Shown here piece by piece: positions 3,805 through 60,444 of a stretch of 64,000 bases of DNA. The DNA is from Luteolibacter sp. (GTDB lineage: Bacteria > Verrucomicrobiota > Verrucomicrobiia > Verrucomicrobiales > Akkermansiaceae): the NCBI GenBank assembly GCA_044354135.1, contig JBILAN010000006.1:1887-65886 (forward strand). The letters run 5' to 3'. The position numbers and the translations under genes were made by a program. Each line of letters begins with the position of its first letter. The stretch's first letter is position 1. The notes beneath the pieces are model-generated. The model was not told the DNA's origin. It saw only the letters and a list, made by a program, of their open reading frames with translations, and searched no databases.

Positions 3805-3914
3805 AAGTTGAGAAGTCAAAAGTCGGAAAGTCGAAAGTCTGAAGGTCATCATGACCCCTACCGCACCAGCGGTTCTAGCTGAGACTTGCGACTTTTAGAC
3901 CTTAGACTGGTTGC
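3805..3914. repeat. Inverted 7/8-mer arrays (AAGTC/GACTT) around a short spacer, copy B
   Basis: AAGTC at 3813, 3820, 3828, 3835; GACTT/GACCT at 3883, 3890, 3898. The spacer shares CGCACCAGCG(A/G)TTCT with copy A. Confidence 0.7.
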
Positions 3915-6184: not shown

Positions 6185-6312
6185 GGGGAGTGGGGGTAGG
6201 GGAGTGGTTAATTCAAATCAGGAATTGGAAATCATCAATCCTCAATCAAAACGAGGAACTAGGTGTGCCTCTTACAGAATGGATTTAGGATTGATAATTC
6301 GGATGAGAAGAT
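6185..6312. repeat. Heptamer arrays: G-rich GGGGAGT array, then an inverted pair (nnnAATC) / (nnnnATT)
   Basis: GGGGAGT GGGGGTA GGGGAGT (6185-6205); TCAAATC AGGAATT GGAAATC ATCAATC CTCAATC (6213-6247); ATGGATT TAGGATT GATAATT CGGATGA GAAGATT (6278-6312). Confidence 0.65.
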
Positions 6313-43102: not shown

Positions 43103-43165
43103 GGTTATTTGTTATAGGTTATTAGGAAATACCAACCTCTTGGCTCCGAGCTCTATGCTCTATGC

Positions 43166-44005
43166 TTACGCCTTCGGCAGGAAAAACCCGCGCTGTTTCT
43201 CAGAAATTGTCATCCCGAGTTTTTCCATCACCGCGAGCATGTCTTCCCACAGTAAGCGTTTGACTTGATTTGAGCTGCTCTGGAGTAGGTAGCTAGGATG
43301 ATAGGTGACGCGTACGGGGATATTCGAGATTTGATGCCATGTCCCCCGCATGCTCTCTAGGCTTCCTGATAAATTGAGTAGTCCCACCGCTGCTATGTCG
43401 CCAAGAGCGATGATGAGTTCGGGTTGAACGATATCGATCTCTGCCAGCATCAGAGGTAGGCAACTTGCTATTTCCTCTGGATTTGGTTTGCGGTTGTTTG
43501 TAGTTTGCTTGGGGATGGCTGGGCGAAATTTCACCAAGCTGGAAATATAAATCTCATCACGCGAGATCCCCATCGCCTTGAGAATATCATTGAGCTTTTG
43601 TCCAGCTGGTCCAACGAAGGGCTGAATATCCTTTTCTTCGTGGTAACCCGGCGCATCGCCTATCATCATGATCTTCGCATCCACATTGCCCGACGCAAAG
43701 ACCAGTGTTTCACGTAAACTCCCCAGCGCATGAGCCGGTGCCCAACTTGCGGCTTGGCGTCTTACGCTTTCGAGCTTTGCGGCTTTGTCTGAGCCGTCGA
43801 TGACCAATTTTGCGGTTTGAGTAATAGGACGGGAAGCACTGGCAATTTCAACAGCAGGGCTTGGAGGCTTGGCTATGGGTTTTCTTGCGCGAATATAAAG
43901 CTCCCGCATACCGTCGCGCGCCTCATCGTCCAGAAAAACATGGGTTTTGCCACGTGCCTGCTCGGACTCGAGAAATTCAATAAGGACATCGACAGGGCGG
44001 CTCAC
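43166..44005 (-). CDS. Uracil-DNA glycosylase family 4
   Basis: GDAPG..EE...PFVGPAGQKL..IL, VKFRP...NRKP..EEI..C, VTYHPSYLL. Confidence 0.9.
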   Translation of the reverse strand: MSRPVDVLIEFLESEQARGKTHVFLDDEARDGMRELYIRARKPIAKPPSPAVEIASASRPITQTAKLVIDGSDKAAKLESVRRQAASWAPAHALGSLRETLVFASGNVDAKIMMIGDAPGYHEEKDIQPFVGPAGQKLNDILKAMGISRDEIYISSLVKFRPAIPKQTTNNRKPNPEEIASCLPLMLAEIDIVQPELIIALGDIAAVGLLNLSGSLESMRGTWHQISNIPVRVTYHPSYLLQSSSNQVKRLLWEDMLAVMEKLGMTISEKQRGFFLPKA

Positions 44006-47102: not shown

Positions 47103-49091
47103 TCAAGTCGCACTCGGCGCGCCACCGTGTTGAGGTGTTGTGGTGGTAACGGAATTTTTCTTAGGCATGCAAAGCAGGGCTTCGCTGATCAGGAAAAACA
47201 GCATGGCGAGCAGAAACCCGCGCCAGATATGAGTGGAGAGTGAAGGATCTGATGTCTGACCGGCTTGGTCTAGCAGGCGGTAGTCGGTTCCTTCCAGTAT
47301 TAGATCGAGACTATCTTTGGTAGTGGTTTCCAATTCATCTTCAGCAAGTGGGCGGTTCACGGCAGTCAGGCGATTTCCGAGACGGAAGACGCCAGCAACG
47401 TGATCGCTGTTTTCTTTTGAGTAATCATCCACGCGAGTTCGTGTTTCACCGGGTGCAAGCATGGCGGCATCTGAGCCAACTTCCGCTAGGAACGAGGCAT
47501 CAAAGCGCTCCGCGCCGAGAGCGAGGATGCGTTGGACGGCCGGCAGTAGCACATCGGCATCGCCGAGATTGGACCATGTGTAATCGGGAATGCTGCCGAT
47601 GGTCCAGAGCGTGCCTTTGTCGATAATTTTACGGGTGATAAACGGTTCACCATCTTCCCATTTTGCGAGAACAGCGGCATCGCTTTTTGGGATGGCGCGT
47701 TTGATGGCGCGGAGGCGTTCAGCAGGTATGGGTGAACCTTCGACGCCGTCGCGCAATGGGCCATCGGCACGTTCCCAATCTTTCAGGATGAAAAATTTCC
47801 CGGATCCAGATGTGGAGATAGGCTCCCACTGAGTTTCGAGAAACGCCTCGGTGGTTGCTGATTTGGGGCTTGGCAAGAGGACGACCTGGCCACCGCTTGA
47901 GAGGAAATTTTGCAGGGTCTTGGCGCTTTCTCCGGTGGGAAGTGGAGCGGCCCAGAGAACCAACGAGAGTTCGGAAGTTGATGTTGCGGCGAAGGCAGCG
48001 GGCTCAATGCGGGTGACGGTTTGTTTTTCAAAATTAGGCGGTGCGGCAGCGAGGCTCAGATAGTTAGCAGCTTCGTTAGATTCAGAAACGATGATGGATT
48101 TTATCGGACGAGCTGGGCCGTATGCGAAGAAGACGGAGTTATCGCGAGGGTTACCATCGGCCGGGATGGAGAGCCAGCCATGTCCGGATTCATCTTCGAG
48201 TTTGATCGGAATGCGTTTTTGGAAACGAAGTGATTGTCCGGGAAGAGTGATAAGTTCGTTTTGTGAGGCACCGTTGATTTGAGTTGTGACTGGAAGGCTG
48301 ATGCTGCCGCGGTTGTCTTTGGAGCGGTTGAGTTCCAAATTCAGGATCAACCCATCCATGGTTCGGCGGGTGCCGAGCAGGCGTAAAGAGGTGTTGGTTG
48401 CAGCGTCTCCGCTGATCGAAAGGATGCGGATTGCGGGTTTTTCTGGGAGGCTTTGTAGATTCGCGCGCAGAGTGACCCAGCGATCGTCATCGGGACGCCA
48501 GTTAGAGCGTTGGAGATCCGATGCGAGCCAGATTTCCGAGCGGCCCGTGGATTTTGTTAGGACATCTGCAGCGGAGGCTAGCAGGGTGGGCACATTCGCG
48601 GTGGAATCAGTAGCAGCGGTTGCGGAGATTTCACCGAGAACATCAGGCGAAGGTATTTCCTGCGGTTTGCCTGATGCGCTATCGATCACGACAAGACGTG
48701 GGCTTCCGATGTTTGACATCGCATCTCGAATTTTTCGCAGCACAAGCTCGCGCTTGGCATCCTCACCATCACCGGAACGGAGTTCCATGGACGCGCTGCG
48801 ATCCAGAATGAGAACTACGGTATCTATCGTACCTGCGCCCCAGCCGAGGAGTCCGGAAACGATGGGACGGGCGGCGGCAAAGGCGAGTGCTGCGAGTCCG
48901 AGGGTGCGGCATGTTAGGATGAGAATGTGGCGGAGTTTCTTTTTGCCACGTGATTCACGCGTGGCTTTGAGAAGGAACTGCATCGCCGCCCATTGAAGGG
49001 TTTTGTGACGGCGCTTGTTGAGCAAATGGATGATCACTGGGACGCTTGCTGCTGCCAGAAACCAAAGAAGAAGTGGGGAGAGAAAGGTCAT
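47103..49091 (-). CDS. BatA/aerotolerance N-terminal plus VWA-like domain protein
   Basis: MTFLSP...PVIIHLL....WAAMQFL, LAFAAARP, ILDRSASM, ASDLQ; C-terminal TM. Confidence 0.85.
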   Translation of the reverse strand: MTFLSPLLLWFLAAASVPVIIHLLNKRRHKTLQWAAMQFLLKATRESRGKKKLRHILILTCRTLGLAALAFAAARPIVSGLLGWGAGTIDTVVLILDRSASMELRSGDGEDAKRELVLRKIRDAMSNIGSPRLVVIDSASGKPQEIPSPDVLGEISATAATDSTANVPTLLASAADVLTKSTGRSEIWLASDLQRSNWRPDDDRWVTLRANLQSLPEKPAIRILSISGDAATNTSLRLLGTRRTMDGLILNLELNRSKDNRGSISLPVTTQINGASQNELITLPGQSLRFQKRIPIKLEDESGHGWLSIPADGNPRDNSVFFAYGPARPIKSIIVSESNEAANYLSLAAAPPNFEKQTVTRIEPAAFAATSTSELSLVLWAAPLPTGESAKTLQNFLSSGGQVVLLPSPKSATTEAFLETQWEPISTSGSGKFFILKDWERADGPLRDGVEGSPIPAERLRAIKRAIPKSDAAVLAKWEDGEPFITRKIIDKGTLWTIGSIPDYTWSNLGDADVLLPAVQRILALGAERFDASFLAEVGSDAAMLAPGETRTRVDDYSKENSDHVAGVFRLGNRLTAVNRPLAEDELETTTKDSLDLILEGTDYRLLDQAGQTSDPSLSTHIWRGFLLAMLFFLISEALLCMPKKNSVTTTTPQHGGAPSAT

Positions 49092-49093
49092 TT

Positions 49094-49552
49094 CATTAAA
49101 ATTCTAAATCTTAAGTATTAAATTCTAAACTAAGAAAAATGGTTCATTTGCTCACTTGGTTCAGTTGCGTAGGATAGTAGCCATGATTTTCACAAGTTCG
49201 TCGGATTCTTTATAAAGGTCACGGAGCGTTTGTTTTAGTGATTCATCTTTCGATGTCTCTCCTAGTAGGCGAAGCCAAAGACGACACTCGCTCGCTTCCT
49301 TTTTAGGGATACGTATAAGGAAGAAAAAATCAGGCTTAGAAACCGCGTTATTGGCTTCAATATAGTTTGCTGCAACAGATCCGGAAGCTCGAAGGACTTG
49401 ATCGATATCTGTCCATTGCTGTCGAGTCCAGTTGATGTCACCGATGCAGCGACGAACCTTGAGGGCAAATTGGTAGGTTCGTTCATCCAAATCATATAAC
49501 GGTTTTTCATCCTCCATTTCTTCGTTTAGGATTTCGTGCTTAAGATTTAATG
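49094..49552. mobile_element. Four-helix-bundle cassette bounded by inverted heptamer arrays
   Basis: Left arm CATTAAA(A) TTCTAAA TCTTAAG TATTAAA TTCTAAA (49094-49129). Reverse complement of the right arm: CATTAAA TCTTAAG CACGAAA TCCTAAA (49525-49552). Interrupts a MoxR-DUF58-BatA operon. Confidence 0.6.
49161..49517 (-). CDS. Four helix bundle protein (TIGR02436 / 23S rRNA-IVS protein family)
   Basis: L.ERTYQFAL.V, QVLRASGSVAANYIEA, DF...I..KKEA.E...WL.LL, E..EL..I...I. Confidence 0.9.
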   Translation of the reverse strand: MEDEKPLYDLDERTYQFALKVRRCIGDINWTRQQWTDIDQVLRASGSVAANYIEANNAVSKPDFFFLIRIPKKEASECRLWLRLLGETSKDESLKQTLRDLYKESDELVKIMATILRN

Positions 49553-50446
49553 CTTTGCTTTTGGTAGGCGCGCTGTGAGGAACTCGCGGAGAAGCGGTTC
49601 GAGCGGGGTGTCGGTGGTGACGAGTTGGTAATCGGCGTTGGCGTCGTGCGCTTTGTCGCGGACGTTTTTCAGGAATTCGTTAAGCGCGGTGTGGTATTCG
49701 TCGGCGATGAGGTTAGGCTCGACGACGAGCGCGGTATTATCTTCGAGGTCGACGAAGCGGTGAGGGCGATCGAAGTTGAATCCAATTTCCTGAGGATCCA
49801 TGAGATGGAAGAGCGAGATATCGTGTTTGCGATAACGCAAGTGCTGGAACGCGTCGGCGAGTTCCGCGGTATCGGTGAAGAAATCGGAGAGGATCACGAT
49901 GAAAGCGCGTTGGCCGATTTTTTCTGCGATTGTGTGGAGTGCGGGAATTAATCCAGTTTCACCAGACGGCTCAACTTTTTCGATGGTGGTAAAGAAGCGT
50001 TCAAGGTGTGCGGCGCGGCGGGAAGGCGGGACTTCGAGGTGGAGTTTGTCGGTGCAGATCGAAAGACCTGCGGCGTCGCCTTGGTTGACTAACAGATAAG
50101 CGAGCGATGCGGCGATACGGCGGGCGTATTGGATTTTACTTTCCAAACCCGGGCCATGAAAATTCATCGAACCGGAGGCGTCTATCACGAAGTAGGCGCG
50201 CAGGTTGGTATCGGCTTCGAATTCCTTGATGTAGAATCGGTCCGAGCGGGCAAAGGCTTTCCAATCGAGGCGGCGGGTGTCATCGCCAGGAACGTATTTT
50301 CGATATTCTGCAAACTCGACGGATGAACCGCGGTGAGGGGAGCGATGTTTACCCGCGACGTTACCCATCATCGGGACGCGCGACTCGATAGGCAGAGAGC
50401 CGAGGCGGGAGAGGAGGTCGCTGTCGATGAAAGAGTGGGCGGACAT
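49547..50446 (-). CDS. DUF58 domain protein
   Basis: G.HRSP.RG.SVEFAEYR.Y.PGDD.RR.DWKA.AR, IDASGSM, ILSDFF. Confidence 0.92.
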   Translation of the reverse strand: MSAHSFIDSDLLSRLGSLPIESRVPMMGNVAGKHRSPHRGSSVEFAEYRKYVPGDDTRRLDWKAFARSDRFYIKEFEADTNLRAYFVIDASGSMNFHGPGLESKIQYARRIAASLAYLLVNQGDAAGLSICTDKLHLEVPPSRRAAHLERFFTTIEKVEPSGETGLIPALHTIAEKIGQRAFIVILSDFFTDTAELADAFQHLRYRKHDISLFHLMDPQEIGFNFDRPHRFVDLEDNTALVVEPNLIADEYHTALNEFLKNVRDKAHDANADYQLVTTDTPLEPLLREFLTARLPKAKH

Positions 50447-50448
50447 GG

Positions 50449-50610
50449 TTAGAATTCAGAGGCCAGAATCCAGAGGCCAGAAAAGAGTTTTTTAGCGGGG
50501 GATTAAGATGGTTGGGAGAGCTTGTTGATGAGAGAGCCCAGCATTCGGGATAGCTCGCAGGTTTCTTCGATCATTTAGTCTGGTCTCTGGCTTCTGGCCT
50601 CTGATATCTC
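50449..50610. repeat. Inverted heptamer arrays (CCAGAGG/CCAGAAT versus TCTGGnn) around a four-helix-bundle remnant
   Basis: TTAGAAT TCAGAGG CCAGAAT CCAGAGG CCAGAAA (50449-50483); TCTGGTC TCTGGCT TCTGGCC TCTGATA (about 50579-50606). Confidence 0.7.
50503..50574 (-). pseudogene. C-terminal remnant of a four-helix-bundle gene
   Basis: Translates as MIEETCELSRMLGSLINKLSQPS*, which resembles the last helix of the family (E..E..rML..Li.kL). Confidence 0.55.
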
Positions 50611-51667
50611 ATTTATCCTTCATCTCAGAAATGAGTTTCTGGACGATTTTCTTGGAGGTCATGCCTTGGGATTCGGCGGCGAAGTTGGTGATGACGCGGT
50701 GATTGAGGACGGCGGGTGCGACGGCTTCGATGTCTTCGATGGAGGCCATGTAGTTACCGCGGAGGGCGGCGCGGGATTTCGCACCGAGGATGAGGTATTG
50801 GACGGCGCGCGGGCCAGCTCCCCAACCGACGGTGTCTTTGATCCATTGTGGAGACTCGGGTTGGCCGGGGCGGGTTTTGCGAACGATCTCGACTGCGTAA
50901 TCGTAGAGGTGATCTGGCACAGGCACACGGCGAACGAGTTGTTGGAACGCGATGATTTTTTCACCGTCGATAAGTTTCGCGAGCGCTTGTTTGGCGGCCC
51001 CAGTGGTTTCACGAGCGATGCGTTTTTCTTCCTCTGCGGATGGGTATTCAACTTCGATGAGGAACATGAAACGGTCCAACTGGGCTTCAGGAAGGGGGTA
51101 GGTTCCCTCTTGTTCGATCGGGTTTTGGGTTGCTAGCACGAAGAATGGAGGTTTGAGAGTATAGGTCTTACCGAGCACTGTGACTTTGTTTTCCTGCATC
51201 GCCTCAAGCATGGCGGACTGGGTTTTGGCGGGGGCGCGGTTGATTTCGTCTGCGAGCAGAAGGTTGGCGAACACAGGACCTTGGACAAATTCAAATTCAC
51301 GTTTGCCGCCGGTAGTTTCCTGGATGATGTCAGTGCCGGTGATATCGGCGGGCATGAGGTCCGGAGTGAACTGAATGCGGTTAAAAGAGAGGTTGAAGGT
51401 CTGAGCAACCGAGGAGACCAATAGGGTTTTGGCGAGACCGGGGACACCCATAAGGAGGGCATGTCCGCGGGCAAAAAGGGCGATGGCTAGTTTTTCAATG
51501 ACATCATCTTGACCGACGATGATTTTGGAGAGTTCCGCGCGGAAAGCTTGGTAAGTTTTACCCAAATCATCAATAGCGGCGACATCGTCTGGTGGGAGCT
51601 GGGTGAGCGATGCTGCAGAAACGGTTTCTGAAACGGATTGGGCGGGGATTTCTTCTAGGGTATCCAT
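50609..51667 (-). CDS. moxR: MoxR family AAA+ ATPase
   Basis: GVPGLAKT, RIQFTPDLMPADITG, LADEINRAPAKTQSAMLEAMQE, ATQNPIEQEGTYPLPEAQLDRF. Confidence 0.95.
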   Translation of the reverse strand: MDTLEEIPAQSVSETVSAASLTQLPPDDVAAIDDLGKTYQAFRAELSKIIVGQDDVIEKLAIALFARGHALLMGVPGLAKTLLVSSVAQTFNLSFNRIQFTPDLMPADITGTDIIQETTGGKREFEFVQGPVFANLLLADEINRAPAKTQSAMLEAMQENKVTVLGKTYTLKPPFFVLATQNPIEQEGTYPLPEAQLDRFMFLIEVEYPSAEEEKRIARETTGAAKQALAKLIDGEKIIAFQQLVRRVPVPDHLYDYAVEIVRKTRPGQPESPQWIKDTVGWGAGPRAVQYLILGAKSRAALRGNYMASIEDIEAVAPAVLNHRVITNFAAESQGMTSKKIVQKLISEMKDK

Positions 51668-58728: not shown

Positions 58729-60444
58729 TTATTTTTTCTTTCTCAGGAAAGGGGGGAGATCCAGATCCTCGCCATCGAGCACGTTTGGATTTTCACCCTC
58801 AAAGCGACCGCGCGGTGTTTTCTTAAATGATAACTCGTCTTGGTCGTTGGATGGCTTGGAATCCATTTTAAGCTGCAATGCGCTCGCAAGATCAATTTTT
58901 GGTTCCTTTGGAGACAACACAGGAATCTCAGACTTGGGTTGCATTGCTTCTGGTGGGACAGCAGGAATCTCAGGTCGAGTTGGGCTGGGATTTATCTCGG
59001 ATTTAACAGACGGGATCTGGGCCACGGGCTTGGGATCTGGGGACGCCGATGGAATGAGCTCGGGTTCTGCAAAAGGACGTTGATAAGATTCTTGCTTGGC
59101 GACATCAGGTAGCGGTGCATTGTTGGATTTTGGTGCTTCACTGGAAACTTTTGTTTGCGATGTGCTTGTCTCAGAAACCTTTGGAGATTCAGTTCCTATA
59201 TTTTCAAAAAACTCATCGATCAATTTAGGTTGCCGAGATTCTGATATGACTTTTTCCGGAAGTTTGATAGAAGGTCGTTTCGGCTGCGATGCATCAACTG
59301 CAGCAGCTGCGGGTGTAGTTGCGGGTGCAGGTGCAGGTGCAGGTGCAGGTGCGGGTTCGGGTTCGGGTGCGGGTTCGGGTGCAGGCGCAGGCGCAGGCGC
59401 AGGCGCGGGTGCAGGTGCGGGTGCGGGTGCGGGTGCGGGTGCGGCCTGAGCGTTTTGGTTAGAAACAGCCAGCGCTTCTTCAGGAAGAGAGCTGATTAAA
59501 GTAATGGATAAGTGATCTCCCATCGAGGTATCAATGGCCGCGCCAAAAAGGATTTGGGTATTTTCCGGAACATACTTTTGCAGGCTTTGCATGAGCAATT
59601 CGATTTCGAACAAGGTTAGTGATTCACCGCCTGATAGATGAACGAGTACGCTTTGTGCATCTCTAAGAAGCGCACCTTGATCAAGCAATGGACTGGAAAG
59701 TGCATTGCGAAGCGCTTTTGAAGCGCGGTCTTTACCATCTGCAATACCTGAACCAAATAAGCAGCGTGAACGAGTGGTGCGTAAAGCGGTGATGAGTTCA
59801 TCGAGCCCGACATGGATCAATCCGGGTTTAACTACCAAGCGAATCACGGCTTTAATCGATTCCGAGATCATTTTATCTGCGGCGCCGAAAGCTTCATGGA
59901 TGCCTTGTTTAGCGAGAACGAGTTCGCCCATTCGGTTGTTATCAAAAGTAACAAGTGCATTGGAAAGTACCGCGAGTTGGTTGAGAGCGGTTTCTGCTTG
60001 TTCGCGTCGTCGAGATCCTTCGAAAAGGAAAGGCATCGTAGCGAAGACGATGACGAATGCGCCTTCCTCGCGTGCGATGCGAGCAATAATGGGAGCTGCG
60101 CCAGAGCCGGTTCCTCCGCCAAGACCCACGCATAGAAAAACAATTTTCTGACCTTTTATTGAATTACGAACTTCAGTTTCTGCTTCCAAGAAGGCTTGTT
60201 GCCCAAGTTCTGGGTCGCCACCCGTTCCAAGGCCTTTCGTTAAATTGGCACCGAGTTGAATTTTTTCTTTGGCAAGAGATGCTCCGAGTGTGCGGATATC
60301 AGTATTTAAGGAAACGAGCTGTGCGCCTTCTTGGCTGTCGAGCGCGATGCGCTCTAACATGTTTGCACCTGCTCCGCCCAAGCCGATAATTTTTACAGCT
60401 GAGGTGGGAATCTCTTGGTTAGGATCTCGTGAATAGGAAATCAT
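58729..60444 (-). CDS. ftsZ: Cell division protein FtsZ with long Pro-rich linker
   Basis: GLGGAG.N, NTD, GLGTGGDP..G, GGGTGSG, PF.FEG..R, C-terminal DLDLPPFLRK. Confidence 0.92.
   Translation of the reverse strand: MISYSRDPNQEIPTSAVKIIGLGGAGANMLERIALDSQEGAQLVSLNTDIRTLGASLAKEKIQLGANLTKGLGTGGDPELGQQAFLEAETEVRNSIKGQKIVFLCVGLGGGTGSGAAPIIARIAREEGAFVIVFATMPFLFEGSRRREQAETALNQLAVLSNALVTFDNNRMGELVLAKQGIHEAFGAADKMISESIKAVIRLVVKPGLIHVGLDELITALRTTRSRCLFGSGIADGKDRASKALRNALSSPLLDQGALLRDAQSVLVHLSGGESLTLFEIELLMQSLQKYVPENTQILFGAAIDTSMGDHLSITLISSLPEEALAVSNQNAQAAPAPAPAPAPAPAPAPAPAPAPEPAPEPEPAPAPAPAPAPATTPAAAAVDASQPKRPSIKLPEKVISESRQPKLIDEFFENIGTESPKVSETSTSQTKVSSEAPKSNNAPLPDVAKQESYQRPFAEPELIPSASPDPKPVAQIPSVKSEINPSPTRPEIPAVPPEAMQPKSEIPVLSPKEPKIDLASALQLKMDSKPSNDQDELSFKKTPRGRFEGENPNVLDGEDLDLPPFLRKKK
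59321..59443. repeat. Hexamer tandem repeat (GGTGCA/GGTGCG/GGCGCA/GGTTCG) encoding a Pro-Ala/Pro-Glu tract in FtsZ
   Basis: About 20 contiguous 6-bp units. Confidence 0.9.

Follow-up and report, generated by a model that had tools for sequence, protein, structure and literature searches.

A 23-codon stub between moxR and DUF58 in Luteolibacter sp.: a probable in situ deletion derivative of an intervening-sequence-type heptamer cassette

Introduction

The closest described counterparts of the element considered here are the intervening sequences (IVSs) found in the 23S rRNA genes of bacteria such as Coxiella burnetii and Leptospira. The Coxiella IVS is 428 nt long and has a terminal stem of 28 bp, which is cut by RNase III, with an S23p ORF in its loop (PMC4990558). 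Tandem GACAGAT heptamers, the number of which varies between strains, lie upstream of the S23p ORF, and the ORF has itself undergone reductive evolution (PMC4990558). Heptamer repeats are also on record as the cyanobacterial STRR and Beggiatoaceae TAACTGA repeats (PMC4679880) and as heptamer SSRs (PMC4692102); these are direct arrays, and the portions of those accounts available to us make no mention of an enclosed gene. Our literature search found no work linking heptamer repeats to four-helix-bundle genes in operons, and a search for 'TIGR02436' found no paper.

The spacer between a moxR gene and a DUF58 gene of Luteolibacter sp. invites direct comparison with these IVSs. As in the 23S rRNA IVSs of C. 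burnetii (S23p) and Leptospira, the protein concerned is of the PF05635/TIGR02436 type (intact orthologues from related genomes pass the NF008912 cut-off) and terminal inverted repeats form a stem of approximately 28–31 bp with the gene in its loop. As in the Coxiella IVS, where the units are GACAGAT/GACAGAA, heptamers precede the ORF (here CCAGAAG/CCAGAGG, with GACAGAA at a paralogue on contig C19), the repeat number varies between strains or genomes, and the ORF shrinks. Unlike the 23S rRNA IVSs, however, the moxR–DUF58 copy is located at a stop/start junction within an operon and not in helix 25 or 45 of 23S rRNA, and, in contrast to the Coxiella IVS, its excision by RNase III is only putative and its ORF comprises the last 23 codons of the gene. 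The assembly contains no 23S rRNA gene. The classical IVS sits in rRNA, whereas the host transcript here is an mRNA. Our reading, to which we assign a probability of roughly 0.88, is that the spacer is an in situ deletion derivative of an IVS-type cassette that was already resident before Haloferula-like and Luteolibacter-like lineages diverged.

Methods

The window analysed is a stretch of 64,000 nt from contig JBILAN010000006.1 of assembly GCA_044354135.1 (2.88 Mb, 157 contigs, 50% GC). DNA of the moxR–DUF58 junction was searched for in 40 related genomes, and the spacer between the two genes was taken from each. The present genome is designated G000; loci L007, L008 and L011 are those of genomes G016, G020 and G001, and the loci with other small cargo, L004, L005, L012, L014, L018 and L010, are the junctions of G021, G008, G007, G012, G023 and G002, respectively. 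A further set of five metagenome-assembled genomes (MAGs) came from a scan with one genome per species. A family HMM (model length 128) was built from the genome's own 11 paralogues.

Results

The moxR–DUF58 spacer

The operon is read from the minus strand, and its moxR and DUF58 genes are separated by 162 nt. The features of the region, all on the minus strand, are listed below.

50609–51667, minus: moxR, encoding an AAA_3 ATPase of 352 aa (PF07726, E 3.9e-63; sequence read)
50609–50611, minus: TGA stop codon of moxR, the final base of which is the first base of the 5' arm
50579–50609, minus: 5' arm, in operon sense GATATC AGAGGCC AGAAGCC AGAGACC AGA, about four purine-rich heptamers (inverted-repeat search; TRF period 7; base-paired with the 3' arm in the predicted RNA)
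50575–50577, minus: in-frame TAA adjoining the remnant ATG on its 5' side, with the deletion junction within or beside these three bases (sequence; alignment with the full G016 and G020 cassettes)
50503–50574, minus: remnant ORF of 23 codons, MIEETCELSRMLGSLINKLSQPS followed by a stop (BLASTP against the G016 and G020 genes; DNA alignment)
50482–50502, minus: retained 3' untranslated stretch of 21 nt, TCCCCCGCTAAAAAACTCTTT, opposite CACTCTGCCCAAAAATCTTA in the alignment with the cassette of G016
50451–50481, minus: 3' arm, in operon sense TCTGGCC TCTGGAT TCTGGCC TCTGAATTCT, pyrimidine-rich heptamers (inverted-repeat search; TRF; RNA fold)
49547–50446, minus: DUF58/VWA-like gene of 299 aa, the next gene after moxR (PF01882, E 1.6e-45)
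49105–49549, minus: neighbouring intact cassette at the DUF58–BatA junction, with a 118-aa TIGR02436 gene at 49161–49517 and inverted arms of 33 nt (other subfamily, other unit)

The two arms of the spacer are 31 nt long, complementary at 27 of 31 positions (87%) and 97 nt apart, and the 3' arm ends 4 nt before the DUF58 ATG. TRF reported tandem arrays of period 7/14 at 50451–50482 and of period 7 at 50579–50603, with CCAGAAT/CCAGAGG as the plus-strand units of the left array and TCTGGnn as those of the right one. Both the inverted-repeat search and TRF agree with the preliminary description of this DNA, made from the letters alone, which had reported an inverted heptamer pair with these units between moxR and DUF58 and a 23-codon ORF between its arms on the operon strand; that ORF is present as listed. 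It had also taken the spacer to be an insertion independent of the neighbouring cassette, and this is borne out by the different protein subfamily and the different heptamer unit of the latter.

In the predicted RNA fold, in which the arms pair, the minimum free energy is -64.3 kcal/mol, as against -43 ± 3.9 kcal/mol in shuffled sequences (z -5.5), and none of 200 dinucleotide shuffles matched the value of the spacer. An Rfam scan of positions 49000–50800 gave only a chance lncRNA match (E 0.17), and no terminator-like site was found. The notion that the heptamers provide stops in all frames, with one stop triplet per unit and three units, was discarded on inspection because CCAGAGG and CCAGAAG contain no stop triplet.

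Complete cassettes at the same junction

Complete TIGR02436/NF008912 genes of 121–127 aa, between heptamer arms of the CCAGA/CAAGA type, occupy the moxR–DUF58 junction in at least seven genomes of related Verrucomicrobiota. Genomes G016 and G020 both carry a 121-aa gene inside CCAGA-type arms; the products score 95.7 and 94.5 bits, respectively, against TIGR02436; with NF008912 the scores are 140 and 135 bits, so that both pass the cut-off of 124 bits. Five further full-length copies were found in MAGs labelled Haloferula (two), Luteolibacter (one) and Akkermansiaceae (two). Intact orthologues match the sequence of XCC0516 (PDB 2GSC; E 3.8e-14). Identity among the intact cassette genes is 0.80 at codon positions 1 and 2 and 0.37 at position 3 and, to judge from this pattern, purifying selection acts on them. 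In G020, a CTT/CTC-rich run of approximately 110 nt (TTCTTC...CCTCTTCC) separates the stop codon of the cassette gene from its 3' arm.

The intact genes end in ...MIEETREISKMLGALIGKLTQKP (G016) and ...MIQTTRELSKMLGSLINKLAPSS (G020), each followed by the stop codon, and BLASTP aligned the 23-aa peptide with these C-termini at 15 of 21 (E 5e-9) and 16 of 23 (E 2e-8) identical residues, respectively, an identity of 70–71%. In alignments with the full cassettes the DNA homology runs on into the 3' untranslated region and both arms. Global alignment of the remnant gave z values of 14.7 against G016, 5.4 against G020 and 8.8 against the shortened cassette of G001, compared with 1.1–2.5 against unrelated fillers of the same junction. 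The DNA alignment places the remnant ATG on the internal Met100 codon of the intact orthologues and the whole ORF at approximately codons 100–122, the last helix, of the ancestral four-helix-bundle gene.

It might be argued that the spacer is an ordinary gene-less heptamer palindrome, the peptide of which resembles a four-helix-bundle C-terminus by chance. The peptide has no Pfam or NCBIfam match at E<=10, and its score of 0.7 bits on the HMM built from the paralogues within the genome was equalled or beaten by 94 of 6461 genomic decoy ORFs (1.5%) and by 1049 of 20000 shuffles. Nor did BLASTP return any alignment with ELVKIMATILRN of the neighbouring 118-aa protein (49161), so that the likeness to this segment cited in the preliminary description has to be given up. 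Comparison with the family model, suggested at the same time, upheld only the placement of the peptide on the C-terminal helix (positions 104–119 of 128) and gave no significant score, because a peptide of 23 aa is too short. Against chance likeness stand the identity to the ends of the complete proteins encoded at this junction in relatives, the extension of the homology through the 3' untranslated region and arms, and an E value of 0.009 with the same-subfamily paralogue on contig C19. On these sequence comparisons we regard chance likeness as effectively refuted, the probability left to it being minute. Decisive in this respect are the complete genes between heptamer arms at the same junction, for which the preliminary description had proposed to look; with their matching C-termini, 3' untranslated regions and arms, they also bear out its view that a gene was mostly deleted while its arms were kept.

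The deletion and the remnant ORF

Approximately 300 nt are missing from the remnant, from the last heptamer or 5' untranslated region to the Met100 codon, with endpoints that are ambiguous within about 10 nt, and the arms comprise about four units, compared with about seven in G016. The cassette of G001 has suffered a separate in-frame internal deletion, in which MDHNFENLEV is joined to CRELEIEPF..., and encodes 53 aa with a weak match to the C-terminal part of TIGR02436. Folding of the four cassettes of G000, G016, G020 and G001 gave in each case a predicted stem whose base lies at the stop codon of moxR and the start codon of DUF58. The interior of the remnant has no second copy in this genome, and the word spanning the deletion junction had no exact match in the metagenome and genome collections searched, which argues that the deletion occurred in place and not through the spread of a short element. 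In the sister genome G003 the junction is occupied by a 126-nt filler without detectable homology to the remnant (z 1.1), so that this genome provides no date for the deletion.

An alternative is that the 23 codons are themselves under selection, for instance by encoding a small protein or by acting as a short relay that hands ribosomes on from moxR to DUF58. The G001 deletion is in frame, the remnant begins at the Met100-aligned codon in the original reading frame, and both shortened ORFs end at the native stop codon, about 21 nt before the 3' arm; moreover, identity between the remnant and intact genes is 0.38–0.54 at third codon positions and 0.75–0.79 at positions 1 and 2, and the terminal branch of the remnant is not longer than those of intact genes. 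Two in-frame events would, however, be expected by chance about once in nine, and the codon-position pattern is equally explained by divergence that predates a recent deletion. The allele has been seen in one genome only, the lone helix of a four-helix bundle is unlikely to fold, and no Shine–Dalgarno-like motif was seen by eye before the ATG. Selection on the ORF appears to us very unlikely, and in all likelihood the 23-aa peptide has no function and was simply left behind by the in situ deletion.

History of the junction

The junction is found in several other states among the relatives. It is empty in G022 and G011, which have a spacer of 5–6 nt, and in G017 and G018, in which the stop and start codons overlap as TGATG or ATGA. 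Short unrelated fillers are present in G003, G005 and G006. Elsewhere other small genes occupy the site: G012 encodes a KilA-N domain protein there (E 1.1e-22), of which G023 has a truncated version; G008 and G007 have a pair of genes with weak similarity to nucleotidyltransferases (E 0.0019); and the products in G021 and G002 are both small, the first secreted and the second hydrophobic and possibly located in the membrane. At some of these small-cargo junctions a heptamer array of TTTAAAG type is present, but only towards DUF58. In filled junctions of the L023 (Luteolibacter) subtype, the start codon of DUF58 is a GTG that follows ...AAATC, and cutting from the moxR TGA to the TG of such a GTG yields exactly the TGATG overlap of the empty G017 junction (L020). 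Such a match would be expected whether a cassette was lost exactly or was inserted where the stop and start codons overlapped.

Several of these observations would suit independent arrival of the cassette in several lineages, whether through insertion specific to a site or structure or through transposition of a MITE-like copy that was short from the outset. The carriers do not form a clade on the tree of flanking coding sequences (AU p 4e-76 for the first four carriers), at least seven presence/absence changes are required on 22 taxa, and the closest flank relatives of filled sites are empty or otherwise filled (G016/G022 and G000/G003). The junction is also a hot spot, at which many unrelated small genes are found. 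Identity at synonymous sites is lower in the cassette (0.37) than in the flanks (0.58), and long residence would account for this higher divergence only given a faster rate of evolution in the cassette than in its flanks. On the other hand, the three outgroup-side genomes are all filled, and the cassette subtypes (MLGxLIxKL, MLSGFIGHLKPP and MLSSLHxxxSPK) largely track the host clades of the flank tree, although taxon L024, which counts against a single old insertion, is placed differently in the cassette and flank trees. By inspection there is no target-site duplication, that is, no direct repeat at the insert ends (TGA/GATATC ... GAATTCT/AACCATG), and no period-7 array lies within 1.5 kb of the 11 PF01797 (Y1_Tnp-like) matches in the genome, as a link of the REP/BIME–RAYT kind would have it. 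The single-copy interior and unmatched junction word of the remnant count against a shortened mobile copy as well. Given that the outgroup-side genomes are all filled, that the subtypes follow host clades and that intact genes are under purifying selection, one old insertion followed by repeated loss, decay or replacement is the favoured history at the level of sequence comparison, and repeated insertion is distinctly unlikely.

Heptamer arrays elsewhere in the genome

The genome contains 154 period-7 arrays, compared with one in a shuffled genome, and about 48 inverted period-7 pairs, most of which are gene-less. There are 12 TIGR02436 matches, and nearly all of the genes are flanked by inverted heptamer arrays. 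The unit differs from copy to copy (GATTGnn, AAACTnT, GCnnAGA, CAGAAGA and others), and the best autocorrelation lag is 7 in nine of the ten cassettes measured. Across phyla, arms of at least 16 nt were present at 46 of 80 loci of the same subfamily, and 39 of these 46 had 7 as the best lag, with very diverse units. The earlier proposal that the unit varies while the 7-nt period is kept is thus well founded in both sets. CCAGA/CAAGA units are common only to close Verrucomicrobiota relatives, and an association of NF008912 with a CAGA-core heptamer in every case, as in Coxiella, was rejected in view of the diversity of units at the 80 loci.

The preliminary description had further held that the spacer ties gene-less array pairs to this protein family. 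A coding remnant was recognizable in one of the 48 loops, that of the moxR–DUF58 spacer (tblastn E 6e-7; next best 0.04). The gene-less AAACTnT pairs have the arm order of cassettes and keep the bases nearest the untranslated regions of a full copy on contig C140, which is consistent with their having collapsed by internal deletion. Among pairs of the ATCAACA type, which is the commonest, the majority have their arms the other way round (A'-loop-A) and outward TTTTTGA-ATGAAGA ends, and are for that reason not simple internal deletions. The link between gene-less pairs and the family is therefore demonstrated at moxR–DUF58 and plausible for some families of pairs, but it is not general.

A number of other repeats were recorded in the course of this work. 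Hairpins of ATCAACA/GATTGnn type occur at approximately 30 loci (for example C17:13749–13867, C26:49679–49793 and C85:10577–10690) in the order A'-loop-A, compared with the A-gene-A' order of the cassettes. A module consisting of an arm and an ATG has 42 copies, three of which lead into a full four-helix-bundle gene. At C26:34480–34600, a frame of 1092 aa, Mfd-like by eye, reads through two adjacent heptamer arrays (CCAGAGT CCAGAAG CCAGAGA CCAGAAA, followed by four to five ATCAACA units; translated ...RIQSPEARDQKEKNPSSKSTINNQQSSIVNQTSD...), so that heptamer arrays are found in frame within a coding gene too. A second dispersed repeat, GACTCCGCTTCGCTCCGTCCAAGCGG..AGGACTTCG, lies inside or beside the loops of heptamer hairpins, for example at C117:74960–75060, C125:7990–8040, C157:5190–5250 and C24:40250–40300 and in the flanks of two C98 cassettes. 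Inverted arrays of GGATCGT/GGATAGT type at C40:13950–14473 enclose 474 nt that appear by eye to be part of a host gene on the opposite strand, the best tblastn match of which to the four-helix-bundle family has an E value of 0.04. Within the window, TRF reported a tandem hexamer, TGCGGG, of 22.8 copies with 86% matches at 59308–59444. Short period-7 arrays at 2869–2899, 3813–3848, 6230–6248 and 43150–43166, with units AAGTTTC, AAGTCGA, AATCATC and GCTCTAT, are probably arms of other heptamer elements.

Discussion

The events that we propose for the moxR–DUF58 spacer begin with a gene of approximately 120 aa for a four-helix-bundle protein (TIGR02436, subfamily NF008912; PF05635, '23S rRNA intervening-sequence protein') inside inverted CCAGAnn arrays, a unit that would have sat exactly between the moxR stop and DUF58 start codons. 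This cassette would have been at the junction before the Haloferula-like and Luteolibacter-like lineages split, and purifying selection would have maintained its gene meanwhile. In the lineage of the present genome, a single deletion of about 300 nt, with the endpoints given above, probably then removed most of the gene, and the arms probably shortened from about seven units to about four, leaving two arms, 23 codons and the 3' untranslated region.

In the polycistronic transcript the arms would be expected to pair into a stem of about 30 bp, the base of which brings the moxR stop beside the DUF58 start. By analogy with the IVSs of Coxiella and Leptospira, such a stem could be a substrate for RNase III, or could at least neutralize the insert, and the RNase III gene rnc is present in the genome (TIGR02191, 252.7 bits). 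Either processing or the proximity of stop and start might make an insert tolerable at a coupled junction. This proposed action of the stem would account for the tolerance of a cassette at a tightly coupled stop/start junction and for the retention of the arms while deletions of the loop survive; loop deletions would be harmless, loss of a single arm would not.

A derivative that keeps its terminal inverted repeats while the interior is deleted, and for which a parent–derivative relation can be demonstrated, calls MITEs to mind. It differs from MITEs, however, in that the parent lacks a transposase and in that the short form is single-copy, having arisen in place and not been amplified. With STRR, TAACTGA repeats and heptamer SSRs, as far as the available portions of those accounts go, the spacer shares tandem intergenic 7-nt units that differ between genomes, but its arrays form an inverted pair around the remnant of a known gene. 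Avd, an accessory protein of diversity-generating retroelements (DGRs), has the same fold as XCC0516 (2GSC). The reverse transcriptase family PF00078 has no match anywhere in the present genome, and the cassette is accordingly not a DGR component of the Avd type. With no period-7 array near the Y1_Tnp-like matches either, the genome offers no obvious mobilizing enzyme.

A further-reaching proposal, which we put forward although we think it rather doubtful, is that it is the arms and not the gene that keep such cassettes viable, the heptamer stem rejoining an overlapping stop/start pair across the insert. Rejoining could proceed through RNase III processing, or the stem might be melted by the terminating ribosome. 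If this were so, cassettes could colonize tightly coupled junctions and last there for a long time, and the overlapping empty junctions of G017 and G018 within filled clades would imply precise excision guided by the arms. The moxR–DUF58 series, with its full, 53-aa, 23-aa, empty and replaced states, would then be a natural experimental system for studying a transposase-free mobile element.

In itself the remnant is unremarkable, a leftover much like any pseudogene, and its value lies in the decay series to which it belongs at one orthologous site. A single operon junction presents all stages: the intact gene, an in-frame internal deletion, a 23-codon stub, an empty junction and a replaced one. 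Three poorly explained features, namely the PF05635 family, rRNA intervening sequences and the excess of 7-nt repeats, are thereby joined, and the comparison points to cultivable relatives in Luteolibacter and Haloferula. The evidence from this orthologous site indicates that at least some of the gene-less heptamer hairpins in bacterial spacers are decayed IVS-type four-helix-bundle cassettes.
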